A program made the position numbers and the translations under genes. Positions 754-58,941 of a stretch of 64,000 nucleotides of DNA are shown here, in pieces. A model generated the notes under the pieces. It saw nothing but the letters and a program-made list of their open reading frames with translations. It searched no databases and was not told the DNA's origin. The stretch spans positions 7,063-71,062 of the forward strand of contig CAZSJW010000004.1 in assembly GCA_964607285.1 (NCBI GenBank), in the 5' to 3' direction. The stretch's first letter is position 1; the number at the start of each line of letters is the position of its first letter. This DNA is from an uncultured Pseudomonadales bacterium. Its GTDB lineage: Bacteria > Patescibacteriota > Microgenomatia > UBA1400 > PJMF01.

Positions 754-3438
754 ATGATTGATACACCTTTTGACCCAAACAAGCTCGATGATACTACTCC
801 TGAGTCCAAAAAAGAGCAAAACTCTGAAAGTACAAAGCCCGAGAGTACCTCTGAGGCACTACAGGGAACCGAACTTACCGAATCTTTTGAACAACTCAGA
901 GATATGTTGAAGGGTTTGACAAAACATTCTGAGAAGGCAGGCACATCCGTGAGTACACCTAAACTCCAGCCAACAACTCCAGCTTCTAGTGAAGCTGCTT
1001 CCTCAGAAACCACAGAACTACTTGATCCAGAAATTGCTCAAACCTTAGTGTTGCCCGCTATTCCTATACGAGAAGGAGTACTGTTTCCTAGTACGGAATC
1101 CGTTCTCACTTTTGGCAGGAAGCTATCACTTAATGCCATCAAAGACGCGTCTAACACTAAAAAACTAGTAGTTCTGGTCACACAACTTGACCCCAAGGTA
1201 GATAGTCCTGAGGGCAAGGACATGTACCGTATTGGAACCCTGGCATTGGTTGAAAAAACTCTCAAAACTGATGACAGTGTTAATGCACTGGTCCGTGGTT
1301 TAGGCAGAGTCCGCATCATCCGCTACGTAAGTACGTCTCCTAAACTGACTGTTGAAGCAGTCAAACTAGAAGAAGTAGACGCAACAGATGAAGAGACAAT
1401 AGCACTAGTTTCACACTTACAAAAAGAGTTCCGCAAAGCTGTCCACATGGGCAAAGCTGTGGAGTTCTTAAACTTTATGAAGCTCATGGGTGGAGTGACA
1501 AATGGTGAACTTGTCGATCAAATTGCTAGTACCCTCAGCATTACAACCAAACAAAAACAAGAAATTCTTGAAGAGCTCTCAGTTAAAGATCGGCTGACAC
1601 TAGTTGTGGATCACCTTGCCCGAGAAATGAAAGTGCTTGAAATTGAAAAAGATGTGGTCCACAAGACACAAGAAAAATTTGATAAACACATGCGAGAGAA
1701 CATTCTCCGCGAACGCATGCGCACAATCCAAAAAGAACTGGGAGACATCGAGGATGAAGAAGAAGTGGTGGAAGATTACGAGAAGAAACTAAAAAAACTA
1801 CATACTACTCCAGAAATTACCAAAAAGATAAAGCGCGAGATAAAACGCTTGCGCCAAATGTCTGTCAGCAATCCTGAAGCTGGCTACATCCGCACTTGGT
1901 TAGACACCGTGTTTGAACTTCCTTGGAACAAAGCAACTAAAGGCAATTTTGACTTAAAAAAAGCAGAGAAAGTTCTGGATAGAAATCACTATGGTCTTAA
2001 AGAAGTGAAAGATCGTATTCTTGAATATATTGCTGTTCTGCAGCTCAAACAAAAACAGTCCACAGAAGGCAAAGGCAGATTACCTACCATTATTTGTTTT
2101 GTAGGACCACCGGGTGTGGGAAAAACAAGTATTGGACGATCAATTGCAGAAAGCTTAGGTCGAAAATTTGTAAAAGTATCCCTGGGTGGCGTTCGTGATG
2201 AAGCTGAAATCCGTGGACACAGACGAACATATGTAGGCGCAATGCCAGGCCGCATTATCAATGGAATGAAGCAAGCCGAAAGCATGAATCCTGTTTTTAT
2301 GCTTGACGAAGTAGATAAACTTGGCAATGACTTCCGTGGCGATCCTTCAGCTGCTTTACTTGAGGCATTAGACCCTGAGCAAAATAACACATTCGAAGAT
2401 CATTACTTAGATATGCCATTTGATCTCTCCAATGTCATTTTTATAACCACCGCAAATACACTTGACACGATCCCACCAGCACTAAAAGATCGTCTGGAAA
2501 TTATTCGCTACTCTGGGTATACCCAAGAAGAGAAGTTTCACATTGTAAAACGACACTTGTTTAAAAAAGTGATGGACGTAAATGGAATCAGTGCGACTCA
2601 GTTCACTCTAACTGACAAGACCCTCGCAGTGATCATTGAACGCTATACAAGAGAAGCAGGAGTTCGCTCACTGGAAAGAACACTAAGCAAAATCATGAGA
2701 AAAGTTGCCCGAGAATTACTTAGTGCACAAACTGAACCTGATGTCATCTCTGATCTAAAAAAAATAACGGTAGACTCCAAAAAATTATTAGAGTACCTGG
2801 GACCAGAAATGTTTGATGCCACAGTTTCAGACGATGAAAATATTGTTGGGCAAGCTACAGGACTAGCCTGGACTTCTGTAGGTGGTGATATGCTGTTCAT
2901 TGAAGTAGCCCTAACCGCTGGGAAGGGTGGAGTAAAATTGACAGGTGCCTTGGGTGACGTGATGAAAGAGTCCGCTCAAGCAGCATTGACGTATGTCAAA
3001 GCAAATGCCACACGACTCGGAATCGATCCCGAAGAACTGCAAAAAACTGATGTACACATTCACGTTCCCGAAGGTGCAGTACCTAAAGACGGACCATCCG
3101 CTGGCGTGACACTCACAACAGCTATCGTGTCCGCTTTTACTAAGATCCCAGTGAGGCGCGATGTCGCAATGACTGGTGAAGTTACCTTACGTGGCAGAGT
3201 ACTGAGAATTGGCGGGCTAAAGGAGAAAAGTATTGCAGCACATCGAGGTGGCTGCACCACAATTCTCATACCCAAAGATAATGAAAGAGATCTTACTGAA
3301 ATTCCCAAAAGTGTCTCTGATGTCATTACGTTTAAACCGATGGCGCATGTTGATGAAGTACTCAACTTGGCACTAGTCAAGTCACCATTCATTTCTGCAA
3401 AACTAAAAGCTCCAGCTGCGAAAATTAAGCAGAAGTAA
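754..3438 (+). CDS. lon: ATP-dependent Lon protease with a ~95-aa low-complexity N-terminal extension (true start uncertain)
   Basis: Lon N-domain, Walker A GPPGVGKTS, and the S16 protease motif PKDGPSAGVTL (Ser-Lys dyad); lon-typical domain order. Confidence 0.9.
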   Translation: MIDTPFDPNKLDDTTPESKKEQNSESTKPESTSEALQGTELTESFEQLRDMLKGLTKHSEKAGTSVSTPKLQPTTPASSEAASSETTELLDPEIAQTLVLPAIPIREGVLFPSTESVLTFGRKLSLNAIKDASNTKKLVVLVTQLDPKVDSPEGKDMYRIGTLALVEKTLKTDDSVNALVRGLGRVRIIRYVSTSPKLTVEAVKLEEVDATDEETIALVSHLQKEFRKAVHMGKAVEFLNFMKLMGGVTNGELVDQIASTLSITTKQKQEILEELSVKDRLTLVVDHLAREMKVLEIEKDVVHKTQEKFDKHMRENILRERMRTIQKELGDIEDEEEVVEDYEKKLKKLHTTPEITKKIKREIKRLRQMSVSNPEAGYIRTWLDTVFELPWNKATKGNFDLKKAEKVLDRNHYGLKEVKDRILEYIAVLQLKQKQSTEGKGRLPTIICFVGPPGVGKTSIGRSIAESLGRKFVKVSLGGVRDEAEIRGHRRTYVGAMPGRIINGMKQAESMNPVFMLDEVDKLGNDFRGDPSAALLEALDPEQNNTFEDHYLDMPFDLSNVIFITTANTLDTIPPALKDRLEIIRYSGYTQEEKFHIVKRHLFKKVMDVNGISATQFTLTDKTLAVIIERYTREAGVRSLERTLSKIMRKVARELLSAQTEPDVISDLKKITVDSKKLLEYLGPEMFDATVSDDENIVGQATGLAWTSVGGDMLFIEVALTAGKGGVKLTGALGDVMKESAQAALTYVKANATRLGIDPEELQKTDVHIHVPEGAVPKDGPSAGVTLTTAIVSAFTKIPVRRDVAMTGEVTLRGRVLRIGGLKEKSIAAHRGGCTTILIPKDNERDLTEIPKSVSDVITFKPMAHVDEVLNLALVKSPFISAKLKAPAAKIKQK

Positions 3439-3459: not shown

Positions 3460-4383
3460 ATGTGTATGAAAGTGAAATGGATTGTCGCGGTATTGCTGAT
3501 CTTGATCCTCACCGTTGTTGGAACTTTACTTGCAAATCGATTTTTAGAAAAGAAAAATAGAGCTGGTTTGCAAGTCATTACACCAGACGTACCTAGTACT
3601 GTGTTTATTAACGGCCAGTACTTAGATAAGACACCCTTAGTTGAAAAAACACTTAAACCTGGAAACTATACACTTCGTATCGTCCCAGATGACGCTTCAC
3701 TTGTTGGTTACGATACAACAATTCACCTCAGATCAGGCGTTCTCTCTGTAGTTACTTGGAAAACTGCAAGTAGCCCTGAGCATAGTGGGGGAGTCATCAT
3801 CGAGATGGAGCCGTTGCCGTCTGGCAAAGAGTCTGAAGTTTCTATTATCTCCATTCCAGATTCGGCAATCGTCAGTTTAGATGGTGGTGGAAAGGAGTTT
3901 GCACCAATAAAAATTGCAAATGTAGCTCCTGGACCACATGAGTTTGAAGCCACATTACCCTCGTATGAAACACAGCGACACACAATTGATGCTGTTCCTG
4001 GGTACAGACTGTTAGTCACTGTAAAGCTAGCTAAACTTCTAGAGACAGGTACGGAGGAGAAAACTGCTACAGCAGCAGCGATATCACCAACATTGTCTGC
4101 AACACAGAGTGCTACGGTTGCTACTCAAAGCGCCCGTGCTCACTCTGCCACCACCTCTGCTCAAACAACTAAACAAGTCAAAATACTGCCGACCAATTTT
4201 TTCCAAGATGGTAAAGAAGTATTGCGAGTTAGAAACAATCCTGGCACGCTAGGCTCTGAAGTCGGCTTTGTAGAAGTGGGCAAACTCTACCCATACTTGG
4301 AAAGTACTGCAAGTGGGTGGATTAAGCTGCACTTTGAAAGCATAGAAGGTTGGGTTAGTGGAGAATATACGCAGTTACAATAA
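3460..4383 (+). CDS. Membrane-anchored PEGA-domain protein with a Thr/Ala/Ser-rich linker and a C-terminal SH3-like segment
   Basis: N-terminal TM helix and two PEGA-like repeats (VFINGQYLDKTPL..LKPGNYTLRI; SLDGGGKEFAPIKIANVAPGPHEFEATL). Confidence 0.55.
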   Translation: MCMKVKWIVAVLLILILTVVGTLLANRFLEKKNRAGLQVITPDVPSTVFINGQYLDKTPLVEKTLKPGNYTLRIVPDDASLVGYDTTIHLRSGVLSVVTWKTASSPEHSGGVIIEMEPLPSGKESEVSIISIPDSAIVSLDGGGKEFAPIKIANVAPGPHEFEATLPSYETQRHTIDAVPGYRLLVTVKLAKLLETGTEEKTATAAAISPTLSATQSATVATQSARAHSATTSAQTTKQVKILPTNFFQDGKEVLRVRNNPGTLGSEVGFVEVGKLYPYLESTASGWIKLHFESIEGWVSGEYTQLQ

Positions 4384-40112: not shown

Positions 40113-40141
40113 CGAATCACCAAGTACTTATAGAAATAGAT

Positions 40142-40170
40142 AACCCCCGCCTAAGACGGGGGTTTTTAGT
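40142..40170 (+). terminator. Rho-independent terminator after rplT
   Basis: AACCCCCG/CGGGGGTT 8-bp stem with loop CCTAAGA, then TTTTTAGTTTT. Confidence 0.6.
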
Positions 40171-40212: not shown

Positions 40213-41241
40213 ATGAATGAAGTATCACAGAATTCTGATGCGATCCTATTTGCTATCATTGAGCGTTCCTTACAACAACAACTAACAAACGATGAGCTGC
40301 GCAATCTAGCTGAACAACTGTTTATTGGTGACCTTACCACTGAGCAAATACTGGCAAACATACAAACTACCACTGAGTACTACCAAAAGTTACGCAATGT
40401 ATTTGAAAGCACAACTAGCCCGCATCAAATGATTGTACGACTTAAGGAGTATTTCTTGCATAAAGCAGCAACCCAACTTATTGTTGCTGAAACAAATGAA
40501 GAGTCGCATATGGCTAAAATGCCTAGCATTTACGCTAGTATCCCTATACAACCAGTGATGCAAGCAGAGCAAAGAAAAAAAACTGAGAATCTAAGAACAT
40601 TAAACGTTATAAACCTGTTTACTAAGTTAGTATCACTAATAAGACCAGATATGAACGAATTGGCTGATCTTCTCAACTCAGATGAAGCTCATCAGAGTGA
40701 TCCAACTTGGTTCAGAAAAGCGGTAGAACACCATCCGCAGTTATCACCAATCCTTTGGCTACTTCCCACTGACCTAACGTACGCAGACTTAAACAAACTC
40801 TGTGAAGCAACTGAGTACAGTTCTACAGGCAAAAAAATCAGGAGATTTGGTGATCGTCAAGTTGCATTTACTACCCCGAGTTTACAAACTATTAATCTCT
40901 CCGGGCCACTGCCCAAAGTGGAGCCCAGTCATGATGAGGAAGAAGTGAGATTTTGGGAAAAATCAGTACCTGAATTGCTCGGTGAGGAGAAGACGCTCAC
41001 AACCCTAACACTTAACCTGGAAGAAACTGAACTCGATGAGCTTTACAATAGTATTCTACTTCCATTTTTACAGAAAAGAATGTTGGCTCAGGTAGCAATG
41101 ACTGCGATATATAGCAGCAAATATTACCATAAAATCTCAGAATTGATTGACCCCGATCCGATAAAGGCAGAGCGCGCAATTAGATTTATAGGATTAGTAC
41201 TTACACAGAAAGTCCTAGGAACTCAACAACATGAAAACTAA
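40213..41241 (+). CDS. Hypothetical protein (342 aa) in the position E. coli uses for the pheM leader
   Basis: Strong RBS AGGGAG; 11-nt overlap with the pheS start. Confidence 0.5.
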   Translation: MNEVSQNSDAILFAIIERSLQQQLTNDELRNLAEQLFIGDLTTEQILANIQTTTEYYQKLRNVFESTTSPHQMIVRLKEYFLHKAATQLIVAETNEESHMAKMPSIYASIPIQPVMQAEQRKKTENLRTLNVINLFTKLVSLIRPDMNELADLLNSDEAHQSDPTWFRKAVEHHPQLSPILWLLPTDLTYADLNKLCEATEYSSTGKKIRRFGDRQVAFTTPSLQTINLSGPLPKVEPSHDEEEVRFWEKSVPELLGEEKTLTTLTLNLEETELDELYNSILLPFLQKRMLAQVAMTAIYSSKYYHKISELIDPDPIKAERAIRFIGLVLTQKVLGTQQHEN

Positions 41242-43015
41242 CCTCATTTACCTCTCAGAGTCATATACTAAACATACAACAGCAAAAATAGTGACAGTCG
41301 ATACCTCGGGAAACCAACCATTCATCATCCTCAACCAAACAGTTTTCTACGCCCAGGGCGGGGGACAACCAGCTGACAACGGAACCATCACCGGGAAAAA
41401 TGGTGTCATGGCTGTAACCCATGTGTCATACAACGGAGGAGAGCTGCAACACAAAGGCACAATCACTGGAACACTGGCAGCAGGAGACACTGTTGAACTA
41501 GAAATTGACTGGGAGCGCAGATATCGCCACATGCAACTACACACTGCAGGTCATATCTTAGATCAGGCAGTAAAAAATGCAGTGCCAAACTGTAAGGGTG
41601 TGGACGGCAATCATGGGTTGAGCAAAAAACCGTATGTTGAGTTTGACGCTGCTATTCAAGCATCGGACATCCCTGCAATTCAAGAGCAACTAGATGCAAT
41701 CAGAGTAGCTAATCTGCCTATCACTGCTGAGATGGTTACATATGACCAATTGGTGGCTCGTAATATTACGCTCCCTTTTGATTTGCCGAAGAACAAAGAA
41801 CTCCGCATTGTCCAAATTGGCGAGTATCCAACCATGCCTGACGGCGGTACTCAACTCAAGACTACTAGCGAATGCTTGCCTATTACAGCAACAGGCGTGG
41901 AAGCAGTACAAACAGAAACTGGCGACCGTTGGCGCGTCTACTACTCAGTTGGAGAGACAACTGCGGTGCAAGCCTCCAAACCACAATCCAGTGACAACAC
42001 AGTGCCTGAGGAATTTCAAACAGCCGTCCAAGCATTCATCACACAAAGCGCAACAGATACCACCCCCGCAGCAATTACCAAAGCTTTCAAGGCACTGACA
42101 ACGCAACTCAAATCAGTCCCCAAAGACCAAAAACCTGCCGCAGGCAAACTCCTAAACCAAGCCAAAGAAGCCATGGAAGCCCGCATCGCCGCCCTCGCCA
42201 GTAACCCAACAACCACCCAAACCTGGCAAGACCTAACCATGCCAGGCATCGCCCCAGCAATTGGCCACATCCACCCTGTCTCACAGGCCATGGAAGAAAT
42301 CACCCATATCTTCGAGCAAATCGGCTTCACCAGAGTTCGCTATCCAGAGGTAGATTGGGATTGGTATGTGTTCGAGAGTCTCAACATGCCACCCAGCCAC
42401 CCTGCTCGTGATGAGTGGGAGACGTTTTGGGTAGACTTGCCACCAAACAACGAAAAGGGGACAGTAGTTTTGACAACCCACACCTCCAATGGCCAAGTAC
42501 GGGAGATGGAGAGACTGAACAGCAAGCCGCCGATCCGCATGATCAACATCGCCCGCTGCTACCGCCGCCAGCAAGATGCCACACACACCCAAATGTTCCA
42601 CCAATTCGAGGGTTTGGTTGTGGACAAAGGCATCACCATTCAGCACCTCAAGGGAACGTTAGATTATTTCGCCAAAGAATTTTATGGTGAAGGTGTCAAA
42701 TCCCGTATCCGTCCGTTTCACTTTCAGTTTACTGAGCCGTCATTTGAGGTAGATTTCTCGTGTACCGTTTGCGATGGCACGGGCAAGGTTGGAACCGACA
42801 AATGTAAGTTCTGCAAATCGGGTTGGCACGAAGTCGGGGGCGCTGGCATGGTGCACCCTAATGTGCTCAAGGCTGGTGGCATAGACCCAGAGGAGTACAC
42901 TGGATTTGCTTTCGGATGGGGAATAGAGCGAACATACACGCTCAAACCAGGTTTGCATATCGATGACATTAGACAATTTTATAGCTCAGACCTCAGGTTC
43001 CTGCGCCAATTCTAA
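41231..43015 (+). CDS. pheS: Phenylalanine-tRNA ligase alpha subunit with an N-terminal AlaX-like (AlaRS editing-type, tRNA_SAD) domain
   Basis: C-terminal half has PheS class-II motifs (FTEPSFEVD, GWHEVGGAGMVHPNVL, GFAFGWGIERT); N-terminal ~250 aa has TVFYAQGGGQPADNGTI and HTAGHIL (HxxxH), as in AlaX/AlaRS editing domains. Confidence 0.8.
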   Translation: MKTNLIYLSESYTKHTTAKIVTVDTSGNQPFIILNQTVFYAQGGGQPADNGTITGKNGVMAVTHVSYNGGELQHKGTITGTLAAGDTVELEIDWERRYRHMQLHTAGHILDQAVKNAVPNCKGVDGNHGLSKKPYVEFDAAIQASDIPAIQEQLDAIRVANLPITAEMVTYDQLVARNITLPFDLPKNKELRIVQIGEYPTMPDGGTQLKTTSECLPITATGVEAVQTETGDRWRVYYSVGETTAVQASKPQSSDNTVPEEFQTAVQAFITQSATDTTPAAITKAFKALTTQLKSVPKDQKPAAGKLLNQAKEAMEARIAALASNPTTTQTWQDLTMPGIAPAIGHIHPVSQAMEEITHIFEQIGFTRVRYPEVDWDWYVFESLNMPPSHPARDEWETFWVDLPPNNEKGTVVLTTHTSNGQVREMERLNSKPPIRMINIARCYRRQQDATHTQMFHQFEGLVVDKGITIQHLKGTLDYFAKEFYGEGVKSRIRPFHFQFTEPSFEVDFSCTVCDGTGKVGTDKCKFCKSGWHEVGGAGMVHPNVLKAGGIDPEEYTGFAFGWGIERTYTLKPGLHIDDIRQFYSSDLRFLRQF

Positions 43016-55452: not shown

Positions 55453-55974
55453 TTAGTTTTCGATTGCTAGCCAGTTAGCGCCAAATGTTTTTCCATCGTT
55501 TGTTACTGCGCGAATCTGAACCCCACTAGATTCCATTAAAAAAATATAGTCATCAGGATCTGGCAAGTTTTGCTTGGTAAAAGATGTATGTACAATGACA
55601 CGTCTTCCATCAGGTAAATAAACATTGCCTATGTCTACTGCCACCATACAGGTTTCGACATTAGTATCACCTACTTTTTCTCGTGTGACTGTAATGCCTT
55701 CTACATCCAGATCGCCTGAAAGAATCAGTATGCATAAGTCTTCTATTCGTTCAAACTCAAACTTTTCTTCTACATTTACCAGACCGTTTCCTTGGATTTC
55801 CTGATCAACTGTACTATCAGCTTCCGCATTACCTCCAACGCAACCCACACCGAGCAGCAAAATTAAACACGCCGCCCAAGGTCTTAGTGATGTAAAAATG
55901 TCTCTAAGCGAACCGCGAAGCAGCTCTAGCTTGGGAACTCGCAATTGTTTTTTTTCTTGAGAATTTATTTGCAT
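55453..55974 (-). CDS. Hypothetical secreted or membrane-anchored protein
   Basis: N-terminal hydrophobic segment followed by a soluble domain. Confidence 0.4.
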   Translation of the reverse strand: MQINSQEKKQLRVPKLELLRGSLRDIFTSLRPWAACLILLLGVGCVGGNAEADSTVDQEIQGNGLVNVEEKFEFERIEDLCILILSGDLDVEGITVTREKVGDTNVETCMVAVDIGNVYLPDGRRVIVHTSFTKQNLPDPDDYIFLMESSGVQIRAVTNDGKTFGANWLAIEN

Positions 55975-56052
55975 ATCTCCTTTTAGGTGATTTTTGCGAA
56001 TTATAAGCCACTAATATACTGTTGGCAAGTTGCCAATGAAGTCAGCTTTCCC

Positions 56053-56080
56053 TTGCAAACCAAGCTTTTTCCGCTATACT
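56053..56080 (+). promoter_or_regulatory. Sigma70-like promoter TTGCAA-16-TATACT driving the tyrA-tyrS leader
   Basis: Good -35 and -10 with 16-nt spacer; predicted TSS about 7 nt before the leader ATG. Confidence 0.4.
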
Positions 56081-56093
56081 TGTTTCGAACGAA

Positions 56094-56162
56094 ATGAAAA
56101 CCAAGCAACAAAACACCAGCTACTATTACACCTACTCCACACTCGTCGAGGCAGGTTTGTAA
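56094..56162 (+). CDS. Putative 22-aa Tyr-rich leader peptide MKTKQQNTSYYYTYSTLVEAGL
   Basis: ATG..TAA ORF with four Tyr codons in five consecutive codons (TAC TAT TAC ACC TAC), between the promoter and the terminator upstream of tyrA. Confidence 0.45.
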   Translation: MKTKQQNTSYYYTYSTLVEAGL

Positions 56163-56187
56163 GTACGCTCCCTATATAGTAAATAAC

Positions 56188-56213
56188 AACCTCCGCCGAG
56201 ACGGGGGTTTTTT
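56188..56213 (+). terminator. Intrinsic terminator/attenuator hairpin immediately upstream of tyrA
   Basis: AACCTCCG/CGGGGGTT stem with loop CCGAGA followed by TTTTTT; near-identical to the rplT terminator. Confidence 0.5.
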
Positions 56214-56245
56214 GCATCTCGAAAGTAATTCATACGAAAGCATCT

Positions 56246-57040
56246 ATGTCCAACACAAGTAAACACAACACCAGACTGGCAATTGTCGGCTTCGGTAAGT
56301 TTGGGCAACTTCTACATCACCTTTTTAGCCAAATACCATGGCTTGAGTTGGTAGTTGTTTCTGGCCAGAAGCTAAAACAACCGATTCACCAGATCTCCTA
56401 CTCAGAACTCGGTGCAGTTGACATTATCATACCCTGTGTGCCGATTCGAGCCTTTCGCCCGGTAGTTAAGCAAATTATGCCACACTGCAAACCTGGAGTA
56501 ACTATCCTTGATGTTTGCTCAGTCAAGGTTTTTCCTACGCAGATTCTCCTAGATCATGCAGCACTAGATACTTACCTTGTTACCTGCCACCCAATGTTCG
56601 GTTCGACAACGATTGCAGAACAAGGATCGGCTGAAGGGTTGCCAGTCACTATTTGGAATGTTCGCTCTTCCAAACATGCGTACTCCCAAGTTAAGCGAAT
56701 TTGGCAAGAACTGGCGGTGCGGCTAGTCGAAATCTCTCCAGAGGAGCACGACCAGCAAGCTGCGCGATCTCAGGCATATGCGCAGCTGATTGGCAAATTG
56801 GGAGCACGTATGCAGCTGAACGCTTCACCTCTGGACACAGTTTGGTTTACCCGGCTACTAGAAATTCAGTCTACAGTCGAGCAGAACACCCAAGAGCTAT
56901 TTATGGATACCCAGGTCTTTAACCCTTACGCCAAGCAGATGCGAGCAGAACTACAAACGAAGCTCGTGCAGCTCGAAACGGACATCCAAGCATTTGCCAC
57001 CACCCAAGTATCGAGTACAATACAGAAGGAGATCCTATGA
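56246..57040 (+). CDS. tyrA: Prephenate/arogenate dehydrogenase (TyrA family)
   Basis: N-terminal Rossmann AIVGFGKFG, CHPMFG, EEHD; stop overlaps the tyrS start (ATGA). Confidence 0.65.
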   Translation: MSNTSKHNTRLAIVGFGKFGQLLHHLFSQIPWLELVVVSGQKLKQPIHQISYSELGAVDIIIPCVPIRAFRPVVKQIMPHCKPGVTILDVCSVKVFPTQILLDHAALDTYLVTCHPMFGSTTIAEQGSAEGLPVTIWNVRSSKHAYSQVKRIWQELAVRLVEISPEEHDQQAARSQAYAQLIGKLGARMQLNASPLDTVWFTRLLEIQSTVEQNTQELFMDTQVFNPYAKQMRAELQTKLVQLETDIQAFATTQVSSTIQKEIL

Positions 57041-58941
57041 AATTCACAATATCCGAGTCAGTTTTTTCCCGTTTATCAAACTATACTGTTGGGGTGCTTA
57101 TTCTTGATGGGCTGAGTCAAAACGAGCATGATCAGGCTGCATTATCAGATTTGACGGCAAAACTGATCAACGAAGCCAAGCCACATTCATCAAGTGACGA
57201 ACGCATCACAGACTGGCAAACTGCTTTCAAAGCAGCTGGCGTATCTGGAGATGTCAAACCAGCCCATCAGACTCTACTCGAGCGTCTGCAGAAAACTGGC
57301 TCACTACCAAATGTTCTGCCGCTAGTAAATCTAACCAACGCACTTTCAGTCAAACATTTAGTCCCGATCGGAACACACACACTGGATATGCTCGATGGTG
57401 ACCTAGAGGCTCGACTCACTGAAAATTCGGATTCATTTATCCCCATAAACGCAACTCAAAGAGAGCAAATCCCTGCAGGCGAACTGGCTCTTACCTCCGA
57501 TAATACCATTTTAACCAGAAATCTAGTTTGGCGCCAAGGTGAGACTTCTAAAATCACCGACCACTCTCGATCTGTTGCTATACTTATTGATGCAGTCGGC
57601 TCACAGGCAGAAGAAGTAGTGCAAAAGGTTCTGAATGAGATCAAAACAGCAATTAGTGTTGTTTTTGGTATCACGGAAAGTAAGTCGTCTATTCTTTCCC
57701 TGTCAAACCCTGAGTTTTCCTGGACTGATACCAGCAATCCAGAGGAGAAAAAACAAAATCAAAAATTGCATTCCGTTCTCACCAGAGGAGTCTCCGAAGT
57801 TCTCCCCAGCAAAGATGGCCTGGCAGCCATCATGCATAAAAAGAAAATCCGAGTTTTCCTAGGCATTGACCCTACTGGCTCACTCCTAACCCTCGGCCAC
57901 AGCGTAGTTCTGCGTAAACTCCAGCAGTTTGCAGATCTGGGCCAGGAAGTAATCCTCCTCATCGGCAGCGGCACAGTCCGCATCGGTGACCCAACCGGCA
58001 AGGACTCCACCAGGCCAGAACTAACCGATGAGCAAATTCAAGCAAACTTCAAGAACTGGAAAGAGCAGGCCAGCAAGATCTTGGATTTCGACAAGATCAA
58101 AATAGTCTACAACGGTGACTGGCTTGATGAGCTCACCTACGCTGATCTGGTCAAGCTCATGGCAAAAACTACTGTTCAACAGCTTATCGAGCGAGATATG
58201 TTCCAAGATCGCCTCAAAAACGGCAAACCTATCTTTGGTCACGAGATCATGTACCCTTTACTCCAAGGCTACGACTCGGTACACATGGATGTAGACCTGG
58301 AAATTGGGGGTACTGACCAGACCTTCAACATGATGATGGGTCGCCACCTGCAAAAAGCCTACAACAACCACGAAAAATGGGTGCTAACTACCCCCATCAT
58401 CAACGGTACAGACGGCCGCAAGATGAGTAAGTCATACGGCAATTTTGTGGCAATCACAGAAGAGCCCAGGCAAATGTACGGCAAACTGATGTCGATTGCT
58501 GATGACATGATCCTAGAGTACTTCACACTTCTGACGGACACCCCAGAGACTGACCTTGCAACCATAGCGGCAAACATGGCTGCGGGGGACAATCCCATGG
58601 AGTTTAAAAAGCGCTTAGCCTTTACCATCACCGAGCAGTACCACACCACTGCTGCAGCAACCGACGCGGCTGAGTTTTTCACCAGCACTGTGCAAAATAA
58701 ATCAGTGCCAGATGATGTTCTAGAAGTACAGCTAGAGTCTTCAGATAAGACCGCTTTGGATGTGCTGAAACGGGCTGTTCCGGAGCGCAGTAATACTGAG
58801 TTACGACGGTTGGTAGAGCAGGGGGCTGTTACGATTTTGCCAGGTGATCAAAAAATTACGGACGCAACACAAGAGTTAGACATTGCGGATGGTACAGTCA
58901 TCAAAATTGGCAAGCGTAGGTTTGTCAAACTGCGTAAGTAA
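57037..58941 (+). CDS. tyrS: Tyrosine-tRNA ligase with an N-terminal B3/4 (PheT editing-domain-like) domain fusion
   Basis: Residues ~1-235 show the B3/4 pattern (LPNVLPLVNLTNALSVKHLVPIGTHTLDML.GDLEARL..); the C-terminal ~400 aa is TyrRS (GIDPTGSLLTLGH, KMSKS, S4-like C-terminus). Confidence 0.8.
   Translation: MKFTISESVFSRLSNYTVGVLILDGLSQNEHDQAALSDLTAKLINEAKPHSSSDERITDWQTAFKAAGVSGDVKPAHQTLLERLQKTGSLPNVLPLVNLTNALSVKHLVPIGTHTLDMLDGDLEARLTENSDSFIPINATQREQIPAGELALTSDNTILTRNLVWRQGETSKITDHSRSVAILIDAVGSQAEEVVQKVLNEIKTAISVVFGITESKSSILSLSNPEFSWTDTSNPEEKKQNQKLHSVLTRGVSEVLPSKDGLAAIMHKKKIRVFLGIDPTGSLLTLGHSVVLRKLQQFADLGQEVILLIGSGTVRIGDPTGKDSTRPELTDEQIQANFKNWKEQASKILDFDKIKIVYNGDWLDELTYADLVKLMAKTTVQQLIERDMFQDRLKNGKPIFGHEIMYPLLQGYDSVHMDVDLEIGGTDQTFNMMMGRHLQKAYNNHEKWVLTTPIINGTDGRKMSKSYGNFVAITEEPRQMYGKLMSIADDMILEYFTLLTDTPETDLATIAANMAAGDNPMEFKKRLAFTITEQYHTTAAATDAAEFFTSTVQNKSVPDDVLEVQLESSDKTALDVLKRAVPERSNTELRRLVEQGAVTILPGDQKITDATQELDIADGTVIKIGKRRFVKLRK

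Follow-up and report, generated by a model that had tools for sequence, protein, structure and literature searches.

A candidate tyrosine-codon leader-peptide attenuator in front of a tyrA-tyrS operon in Patescibacteria

What decides whether RNA polymerase enters the tyrA-tyrS operon of this genome? We addressed this question in a 64,000-nucleotide (nt) stretch of DNA, here called the window, in which two + strand genes for tyrosine synthesis and tRNA charging are preceded by a short open reading frame (ORF) rich in Tyr codons and by an intrinsic terminator. Leader-peptide attenuation is a textbook mechanism, and an earlier note on this DNA, made from the sequence alone, had proposed that the two elements form such a ribosome-mediated attenuator. 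We conclude that the leader is very probably a ribosome-mediated (leader-peptide) attenuator that senses charged tRNA-Tyr and controls tyrA together with a tyrS that carries a B3/4 domain. The conclusion is carried by the comparison with other genomes: the same layout is found in many relatives, and a ribosome-stalling switch is therefore very probable.

Leader anatomy and the predicted switch

The leader begins with a sigma-70-like promoter site on the + strand (56053..56080), present where the earlier note had placed it, with the -35 hexamer TTGCAA at 56053-56058, a 16-nt spacer and the -10 hexamer TATACT at 56075-56080. It is followed on the same strand by an ORF of 22 codons (56094..56162), which runs from an ATG at 56094 to a TAA at 56160-56162 and encodes MKTKQQNTSYYYTYSTLVEAGL. 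The codons TAC TAT TAC ACC TAC (56121..56135, + strand) were found in this ORF as described, at codons 10 to 14, with Tyr at codons 10, 11, 12 and 14; they are the proposed stall site. Counting both strands, the window contains 684 small ORFs that start with ATG and have 8-45 codons; this leader is the only one of them with four Tyr residues in five consecutive codons.

The intrinsic terminator, the candidate attenuator (56188..56213, + strand), consists of an 8-bp GC-rich stem (AACCTCCG/CGGGGGTT), a 6-nt loop and a run of six T's. The hairpin itself (56188-56209) starts at the 26th nt past the leader stop, leaving a gap of 25 nt, and has a computed free energy of -11.5 kcal/mol on its own. 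The T-run is made up of the last two T's of the hairpin and four more, and ends at 56213, 32 nt 5' of the tyrA ATG at 56246, which agrees with the previous estimate of about 30 nt. The neighbouring gene at 55453-55974 lies on the opposite strand, divergent from tyrA; the hairpin therefore terminates no upstream gene and sits between the promoter and tyrA. Only two strong intergenic + strand sites with a hairpin and a T-run stand immediately 5' of a + strand gene in the window, and the attenuator is one of them.

Folding of the whole leader and of the segment 56139-56213 gave a minimum free energy (MFE) structure in which 56142-56160 is paired with 56186-56205, at -21.1 kcal/mol. The upstream strand of this helix, the predicted antiterminator (CTCGTCGAGGCAGGTTTGT, 56142..56160, + strand), covers the final six sense codons of the leader and extends to the first stop-codon base, and its partner takes in the terminator 5' arm, the loop and most of the 3' arm. 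The pairing of 56152-56160 with 56185-56192, pointed out before, is thus real and forms the core of the longer helix. The duplex between the antiterminator and the terminator 5' arm was calculated at -11.1 kcal/mol, as compared to -7.2±2.3 kcal/mol for shuffled sequences. When a ribosome was placed on the stop codon, with positions masked up to +12 nt, it covered the antiterminator and left the terminator as the only structure able to form. With the ribosomal A site on Tyr codon 10 or 12, which were the positions modelled, the antiterminator is the MFE structure.

In the proposed mechanism, transcription would begin a few nucleotides 5' of the leader ATG, and translation of the 22-codon leader by a ribosome would follow. 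When Tyr-tRNA(Tyr) is plentiful, the ribosome would reach the stop codon and cover 56142-56160, upon which the nascent RNA would form the hairpin at 56188-56209 and RNA polymerase would terminate at the T-run. When Tyr-tRNA(Tyr) is scarce, the ribosome would stall when codon 10, 11 or 12 occupies its A site, leaving 56142-56160 free to pair with the emerging 5' arm of the terminator and later with its 3' arm. The terminator would then be blocked, and the polymerase would enter tyrA, for tyrosine synthesis, and tyrS, for tRNA charging.

A near-twin of the attenuator hairpin was observed elsewhere in the window, at 40141-40163 (+) on the 3' side of rplT (AACCCCCGCCTAAGACGGGGGTT, as compared to AACCTCCGCCGAGACGGGGGTT at 56188-56209). 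It was rejected as a second attenuator: it lies directly after rplT, has no leader ORF, and is followed by a promoter-like site of its own. It looks like an ordinary terminator, yet it shares sequence with the attenuator hairpin.

Leaders in relatives and their codon content

Close relatives were found by means of the TyrA protein. Three contigs (L081, L082 and L083) encode a TyrA that is 81-89% identical to that of the window (81% for L081/L082); L081 carries the identifier ERZ27275081 and L082 JGI 3300005126. All three bear the same leader, with promoter, ATG, Tyr run, antiterminator segment and terminator retained. In L081, both promoter hexamers are identical to those of the window and the alignment starts abruptly at the -35 hexamer; the DNA 5' of it has 43.8% identity and cannot in effect be aligned. 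The window and L081 share 91.7% identity over the part that extends from Tyr run to T-run, as compared to 58.9% at the third codon positions of tyrA, which suggests that this part of the leader is under purifying selection.

The changes within the leader are as informative as its conservation. The Tyr codons are invariant in L081 and L083, and amino acid changes were observed at codons 4, 5, 7, 8, 13 and 15; the peptide thus varies except at the Tyr codons and at those that overlap the antiterminator. The changes in the terminator of L081 and L083 are confined to the loop. In L081, where the leader reads MKTSHQTSSYYYGYPTLV, codon 19 has become a stop, four codons upstream of the window stop, and the gap from stop to hairpin is 37 nt with the stop moved, as compared to 25 nt in the window. 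The L081 stop sits directly before the antiterminator core GGCAGGTT and the window stop just after it, and in the model a terminating ribosome would cover the core from either position. This pattern, as read from the aligned sequences, is what would be expected of a regulatory leader and not of a functional peptide. A Tyr-rich micropeptide with a function of its own, such as the precursor of a modified peptide, would also account for the conservation of the ORF and its Tyr run. However, peptide conservation is limited to that run, the length and the C-terminus vary, and the stop has moved by four codons between relatives whose TyrA proteins are 81% identical. Pfam annotation of the neighbours revealed no modification or export genes adjoining the leader ORF, and its constant partners are the terminator and Tyr-related genes. 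We regard a micropeptide as extremely unlikely.

For a wider comparison, we used 80 species-level Patescibacteria tyrS loci. No tyrA homologue was detected by tblastn in any of them; the tyrA-tyrS pairing is therefore rare, and the comparison rested on leader architecture and on the separate TyrA-anchored loci. A comparable leader was identified in 12 of the 80 loci. The earlier note had named missing ORFs or missing Tyr runs in orthologous leaders as grounds for refutation, and the leader stood up to this comparison. Each of the 12 contains an ATG mini-ORF of 16-23 codons on the tyrS strand with a Tyr run (two Tyr codons in L063), and 16-30 nt past the stop there follows a GC hairpin with a run of four or more T's. 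The encoded peptides are MHKISVCASYYYSSPTLGE (L001), MMNKLIIRTTGYYYYQLLY (L003), MKHHCFSASYYYRSQYAW (L007), MSKHYLNPSYCYYALYYGGL (L008), MRIKVTKNTAYYYVSQERGRIF (L009), MTHTAICANYYAYPLK (L012), MRKYTTYSPNFFSCIHS (L031), MFKHSYYYYVYCNFVKGRMVS (L037), MRTYTQFSSYSYNLSNS (L047), MLMKLFSTNYYYYKSYLATRADL (L050), MELSTRAFIYYYTYHQM (L056) and MQLSTHISSYHYQPNT (L063). The Tyr runs fall at codons ~5-17 and use both TAT and TAC. The architecture is alike, and the sequences look non-homologous, with neither primary sequence nor any extra structure conserved. In three further loci (L020, L029 and L045), a small ORF and a terminator stand 5' of tyrS with aromatic codons that are merely scattered, and these were left unclassified.

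The position of these ORFs was compared with expectation. In 2 x 648 kb, 21 small ATG ORFs have at least three Tyr in five codons, and ten of these lie within 1.6 kb upstream of tyrS on the tyrS strand, a space that makes up ~10% of that searched. Tyr is normally a rare residue. In a generic scan of terminator-like hairpins in the tyrS loci, which yielded 84 leader-like small ORFs, Tyr was the commonest run residue (n=14).

These results bear on the simplest alternative, namely that an ordinary terminator or an insulator happens to lie next to a spurious Tyr-rich small ORF. The promoter-like site would allow for this, since it scored just 9/12 in the promoter scan and matches of that score are common in the region (10 as compared to 6.4 expected), so that the site is unexceptional alone; the fold statistics of the single sequence are weak as well. 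Coincidence is nevertheless hardly credible, because no + strand gene ends 5' of the hairpin, because the architecture occurs in 12 other species-level loci where it tracks Tyr-related genes, and because the leader is far better conserved than neutral sites in close relatives.

The switch itself was also compared across genomes. The segment that best complements the terminator 5' arm was located, in all 13 leaders compared, at -19 to +11 nt relative to the first nucleotide of the stop codon. Against shuffled sequences, these complements gave individual z-scores from -0.2 to -3.6 and a combined Stouffer z of -7.3, which is also -7.3 when two near-duplicates are removed. In several leaders the antiterminator copies the terminator 3' arm, as in L008, where ACGGTGGG occurs twice, and L012, where AAGAGGGGC occurs twice. 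We further modelled 14 leaders co-transcriptionally, with the RNA extending only through the loop and a ribosome placed on the main run's second Tyr codon. Upstream pairing then took up 3-7 nt of the 5' arm in all 14 (-11 to -22 kcal/mol). A ribosome on the stop reduced this pairing to between 0 and -2.2 kcal/mol, and the terminator formed in all 14 (fully in 13, partially in L087). The mutually exclusive folds expected by the earlier note are thus borne out in silico, with pairing to the terminator 5' arm in each of the 14 modelled leaders.

The codons of the leaders were then set against the genes between leader and tyrS, as identified with Pfam. Leaders with Tyr only are found before tyrS alone (L007, L037 and L056), before TyrA and tyrS (the window), before a phenylalanine-4-hydroxylase family gene and tyrS (L003, L008 and L009; Biopterin_H, E 1e-33 to 1e-36) and before a chorismate mutase gene and tyrS (L012). 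Two other loci with chorismate mutase and tyrS (L031 and L047) have Tyr plus Phe in the leader. Operons with prephenate dehydratase (PDT) and TyrA follow leaders with Phe and Tyr (L087, MKNTTINKFYSYFYPE; L090, MSQAVKFFSFYFNFQKGGGLT), and an operon with DAHP synthase, TyrA and PDT follows a leader with Phe, Tyr and Trp (L091, MFNSTANKFYFWFYSSQPAGNLLYLN). Phe-rich leaders stand before pheS, pheT and tyrS in L013, L014 and L017. Among 62 terminator-linked mini-ORFs in 80 metagenome loci anchored on TyrA relatives, 18 have at least three aromatic residues in six (for example MIKNITKGFYFFWFYFFSKETNLL and MKTMITKGYKYYYRYFTRRELILRP). These metagenome loci were obtained with an alignment of 27 sequences as the query, after a scan with the single TyrA protein had returned no relatives. 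Judged from these gene contents, the match between codons and operon products is a signature of ribosome-mediated attenuation, and it is hard to square with a fixed RNA that binds a ligand or a protein. The window leader is thereby placed in a wider and apparently unannotated set of putative aromatic leaders in Patescibacteria and related metagenomic lineages.

Mixed Phe/Tyr(/Trp) leaders with terminators precede aromatic biosynthesis operons (DAHP synthase, PDT, TyrA) at six loci: L003:2394-2456, L009:2724-2792, L087:95-145, L090:~3069-3134, L091:~3709-3789 and L084:3282-3356 (-). In L003 and L009, the mixed leader stands in tandem, a few hundred nucleotides upstream of the Tyr-only leader. 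The Phe-rich leaders, each with a terminator, are located at L013:722-772 (MLSNNFFSSYFFNFQK), L014:495-545 (MTNNKFFSSFFFYFQK) and L017:763-813 (MFTNKYFTGFFFNFQK), and by their gene order these putative leaders are the Patescibacteria counterpart of the E. coli pheM-pheST leader.

The codon content also speaks to the possibility that a protein or RNA factor binds the leader RNA and chooses between terminator and antiterminator, the ORF being incidental. The factor could be TyrRS itself, by analogy with ThrRS at the thrS leader, or a TRAP-like protein, or uncharged tRNA-Tyr that would work through an unrecognised element of the T-box kind. Such control is compatible with the terminator/antiterminator pair, which exists whatever controls the choice, and with a leader ORF that has no Shine-Dalgarno (SD) sequence. 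However, what distant relatives conserve is the ATG with its reading frame, the Tyr codons, and where the stop lies with respect to the antiterminator, whereas they share no primary sequence or extra structure and write Tyr as both TAT and TAC. A shift in codon content with the operon, from Phe to Phe and Tyr to Phe, Tyr and Trp, would not be expected of a fixed ligand-binding RNA.

Nor does the leader match a T-box or any other Rfam family. At gathering score, Rfam identified only RNase P and three tRNAs in the whole window and no T-box. A permissive scan (E<=10) of 55900-56400 gave neither a T-box (RF00230) nor an amino-acid leader family; its only matches, PyrD_leader (E=10), mir-9847 and istR, are far under their gathering scores, and none covers the stretch from leader ORF to terminator on its strand. 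Rfam found no T-box in 16 related tyrS loci either, and the T-box 12-mer GGTGGNACCRCG is absent from the window leader, in agreement with the earlier failure to see it there. A T-box or other known RNA family was rejected as the identity of the leader on the basis of these scans and the 12-mer search, and we consider any of the factor-binding schemes, including those with the factors named above, very unlikely.

As a separate observation, GGTGGNACCRCG occurs five times in the tyrS loci (L018:3027-3038, L030:1547-1558, L041:3250-3261, L058:1659-1670 and L066:2473-2484), each time on the same strand as tyrS, at a distance of 0.7-2.4 kb upstream of it and outside any leader, as compared to a rough chance expectation of <1. 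Rfam found no T-box in L018, and the motif therefore probably lies in a conserved coding region.

Strength of the attenuator reading

Several results weigh against a ribosome-mediated attenuator, and initiation of the leader is, for the window, the weakest link. No SD-like motif was found before the leader ORF, either in the window or in any of the 14 leaders inspected, whereas an SD is present at neighbouring genes such as tyrS (GAAGGAG). The window -10 hexamer ends 13 nt 5' of the leader ATG, as it does in L081, which implies a 5' untranslated region of ~6 nt. The only ground on which initiation is plausible is the analogy with leaderless leader ORFs, which suggests leaderless or near-leaderless translation; at a spacing of 13 nt, the window ORF is probably not strictly leaderless. 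Across the 14 leaders, the distance from -10 hexamer to ATG is 0-13 nt, and in eight of them a good hexamer (TACAAT, TATAAT or TATACT; at least 5/6) ends 6-10 nt before the ATG.

The folding results add further points on the same side. For the window sequence alone, the z-scores of -0.9, -1.4 and -1.9 are not significant; single-sequence thermodynamics was rejected as insufficient proof of a switch, and significance therefore rests on the cross-genome comparison. If the ribosome is stalled at codon 14, the fourth Tyr codon, and 12 nt downstream are masked, the MFE structure is the terminator. Untranslated window RNA folds as the antiterminator, and the default without translation would therefore be read-through, unlike in trp. 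When full-length RNA was folded with a stalled ribosome, the antiterminator fully displaced the terminator in seven of the 14 leaders and shared the 5' arm in L063, whereas the terminator stayed in the MFE structure in six (wholly in five, mostly in L008). These six leaders would therefore need kinetic, co-transcriptional trapping. In addition, 68 of the 80 relatives have no Tyr-run leader, and we know of no studies of transcription-translation coupling in candidate phyla radiation (CPR) bacteria.

The persistence of the terminator in some stalled relatives would also fit a different role for leader translation, which might affect how stable the mRNA is, whether Rho gains access or whether the tyrA ribosome-binding region opens, the hairpin being a constitutive leaky terminator or a stabiliser. 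The lack of a clear SD at tyrA points the same way. Such a role is nevertheless improbable. A T-run follows the hairpin in every case, and the hairpin lies 30-60 nt from the next start codon, which is therefore not occluded; moreover, it is specifically the terminator 5' arm that the antiterminator complements. Attenuation by a stalled ribosome thus remains the reading that we adopt.

For the set as a whole, we judge it on balance probable, with less assurance than for the window leader, that Patescibacteria have lineage-wide leaders without an SD, probably leaderless or nearly so, in which the mix of Phe, Tyr and Trp is matched to the operon. These would include the first Tyr-only attenuators placed over tyrS and a single retained Tyr-producing enzyme (TyrA, phenylalanine hydroxylase or chorismate mutase).

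The controlled genes and known systems

The first gene of the operon, tyrA (56246..57040, +), encodes a 264-aa protein of the prephenate/arogenate dehydrogenase family (Pfam PDH_N, E 2.4e-15) that scores under the NCBIfam equivalog cut-offs. Its homologues combine PF02153 and PF26213 (TYRAAT1_C), and some are named prephenate dehydrogenase at source. Its stop overlaps the start of tyrS as ATGA (57037-57040), as noted before. The second gene (57037..58941, +) encodes a tyrosine--tRNA ligase of 634 aa, and its naming as tyrS stands for the TyrRS body, which matches TIGR00234 with 318.9 bits (cut-off 113.8) over residues 240-633. It is not a plain tyrS, since it has an additional N-terminal B3/4 (CtdA-like deacylase) domain (Pfam B3_4, residues 72-187). 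Comparison of the N-terminal domain with the PDB identified the CtdA canavanyl-tRNA deacylase (9f7e_A, E 7.6e-11) and also 9mkl_A, and by this similarity the domain may be a cis-editing domain on TyrRS. The paper on the CtdA family mentions no B3/4-TyrRS fusion (PMC12449066). Among the 80 related tyrS loci, the fusion was observed in only two (L001:4001-5902 and L003:4001-5905).

The relatives of the window TyrRS lie in metagenome-assembled genomes labelled Patescibacteria, Paceibacterota or Pacebacteria, and the G+C content of the window is 44%. Judging by these relatives, the host is a Patescibacteria/CPR bacterium and not a Gram-positive one, and the Gram-positive-type setting assumed in the earlier note does not hold.

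Some other genes were recorded near the leaders and in the window. The Biopterin_H genes, of ~235 aa, lie directly 5' of tyrS (L003 3168-3875, L008 3497-4210 and L009 3240-3950), which implies that tyrosine is made from phenylalanine in these three Patescibacteria with reduced genomes. A gene for an NYN-domain protein, a predicted RNase, stands immediately 5' of tyrS in two unrelated leader-controlled operons (L050:3405-3947 and L087:3818-4345). A Cas12a (Cpf1)-type gene was found on the L091 metagenome contig (L091:7336-10738), where it follows the DAHPS-TyrA-PDT operon, ~1.6 kb downstream of the TyrA gene and ~0.45 kb past the last + strand gene of the operon. In the window, pheS (41231-43015, +) is long (594 aa), with an N-terminal extension in which the C-terminal portion of the AlaRS class II core profile was recognised (tRNA-synt_2c, residues 18-96); the gene is not preceded by a Phe leader. 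A 342-aa gene of unknown function lies at 40213-41241, between the rplT terminator and pheS.

Among known systems, the layout most resembles the E. coli pheM leader and pheST attenuator (Springer et al. 1985, as cited in PMC11802643), where a leader peptide with cognate codons and then an intrinsic terminator control an aminoacyl-tRNA synthetase operon. It differs in that the window leader encodes Tyr and not Phe, that the operon couples the biosynthetic TyrA to the synthetase, and that the leader has no SD, a very short predicted 5' untranslated region, a CPR host and no detected sequence similarity. As in E. coli pheL/pheA and trpL/trp, a stall at the regulatory codons would free an antiterminator that competes for the terminator 5' arm. 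Unlike these, the window leader is Tyr-specific, its untranslated RNA favours the antiterminator, and the strong 1:2 'protector' hairpin is absent from its MFE structure; a 1:2-like hairpin together with the terminator was folded in five relatives (L001, L007, L009, L012 and L056).

The aroR leader (Phe-Tyr-Phe) 5' of aroF in Corynebacterium glutamicum is described as responding to Phe limitation and not to Tyr (Neshat et al. 2014, via PMC11802643). It shares with our leaders the use of Tyr codons to attenuate an operon for aromatic amino acid biosynthesis, and is nearest to the mixed leaders L087, L090 and L091; in contrast, the window leader has only Tyr as regulatory codons and stands over Tyr-specific genes. 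Leaderless leader peptides have been documented in Deinococcus deserti (PMC4007540) and polycysteine leaderless short ORFs in mycobacteria (bioRxiv 10.1101/834739). Like these, the leaders analysed here are mini-ORFs without an SD near the transcript 5' end, before aminoacyl-tRNA synthetase or amino acid genes, the transcript starts here being predicted; they differ in amino acid and phylum, and the window -10 spacing is 13 nt. Tyrosine genes have been described as controlled by T-boxes or TyrR (PMC1262725), as in the tyrS T-box riboswitch of Bacillus subtilis (Henkin et al. 1992, cited in PMC1262725). That riboswitch and, by prediction, the window leader have one task in common, an antitermination that increases tyrS transcription at low levels of charged tRNA-Tyr. 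In the T-box, uncharged tRNA is sensed directly by a structured leader of ~200 nt, whereas the window leader is ~120 nt long and contains an ORF.

In the searchable literature, the attenuator specificities found were Trp, Phe, His, Thr, Leu, Ile/Val and, in some groups, Cys, and the only Tyr-codon leader found was C. glutamicum aroR. We found no description of a Tyr-only leader peptide there; subscription-only papers were outside its scope, so an earlier description is possible. Nor did the openly searchable literature yield a description of leader-peptide attenuation in CPR/Patescibacteria.

A Tyr-specific leader, found repeatedly across a little-understood radiation of uncultured bacteria with reduced genomes, adds an amino acid specificity to the known set of attenuators. 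It matters for annotation as well: no Rfam family matches these mini-ORFs and attenuators, and such short ORFs would probably escape most gene callers. Being compact and modular, the switch could find use as a Tyr-responsive genetic part. For the biology of CPR bacteria, the Tyr leaders point indirectly to a coupling of translation with transcription and to a sensing of tRNA charging. In their genomes, TyrA, phenylalanine hydroxylase or chorismate mutase appears to be kept as a single Tyr-producing step under demand-driven control beside tyrS, which bears on the ways in which CPR bacteria acquire amino acids from hosts or the environment. If the reading of a lineage-wide set of leaders is true, it would mean that transcription-translation coupling works in CPR bacteria and that they actively manage their tyrosine supply. 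The same switch would also control a TyrRS fused to a CtdA-like B3/4 deacylase domain, which suggests a combined module for tyrosine supply and fidelity.

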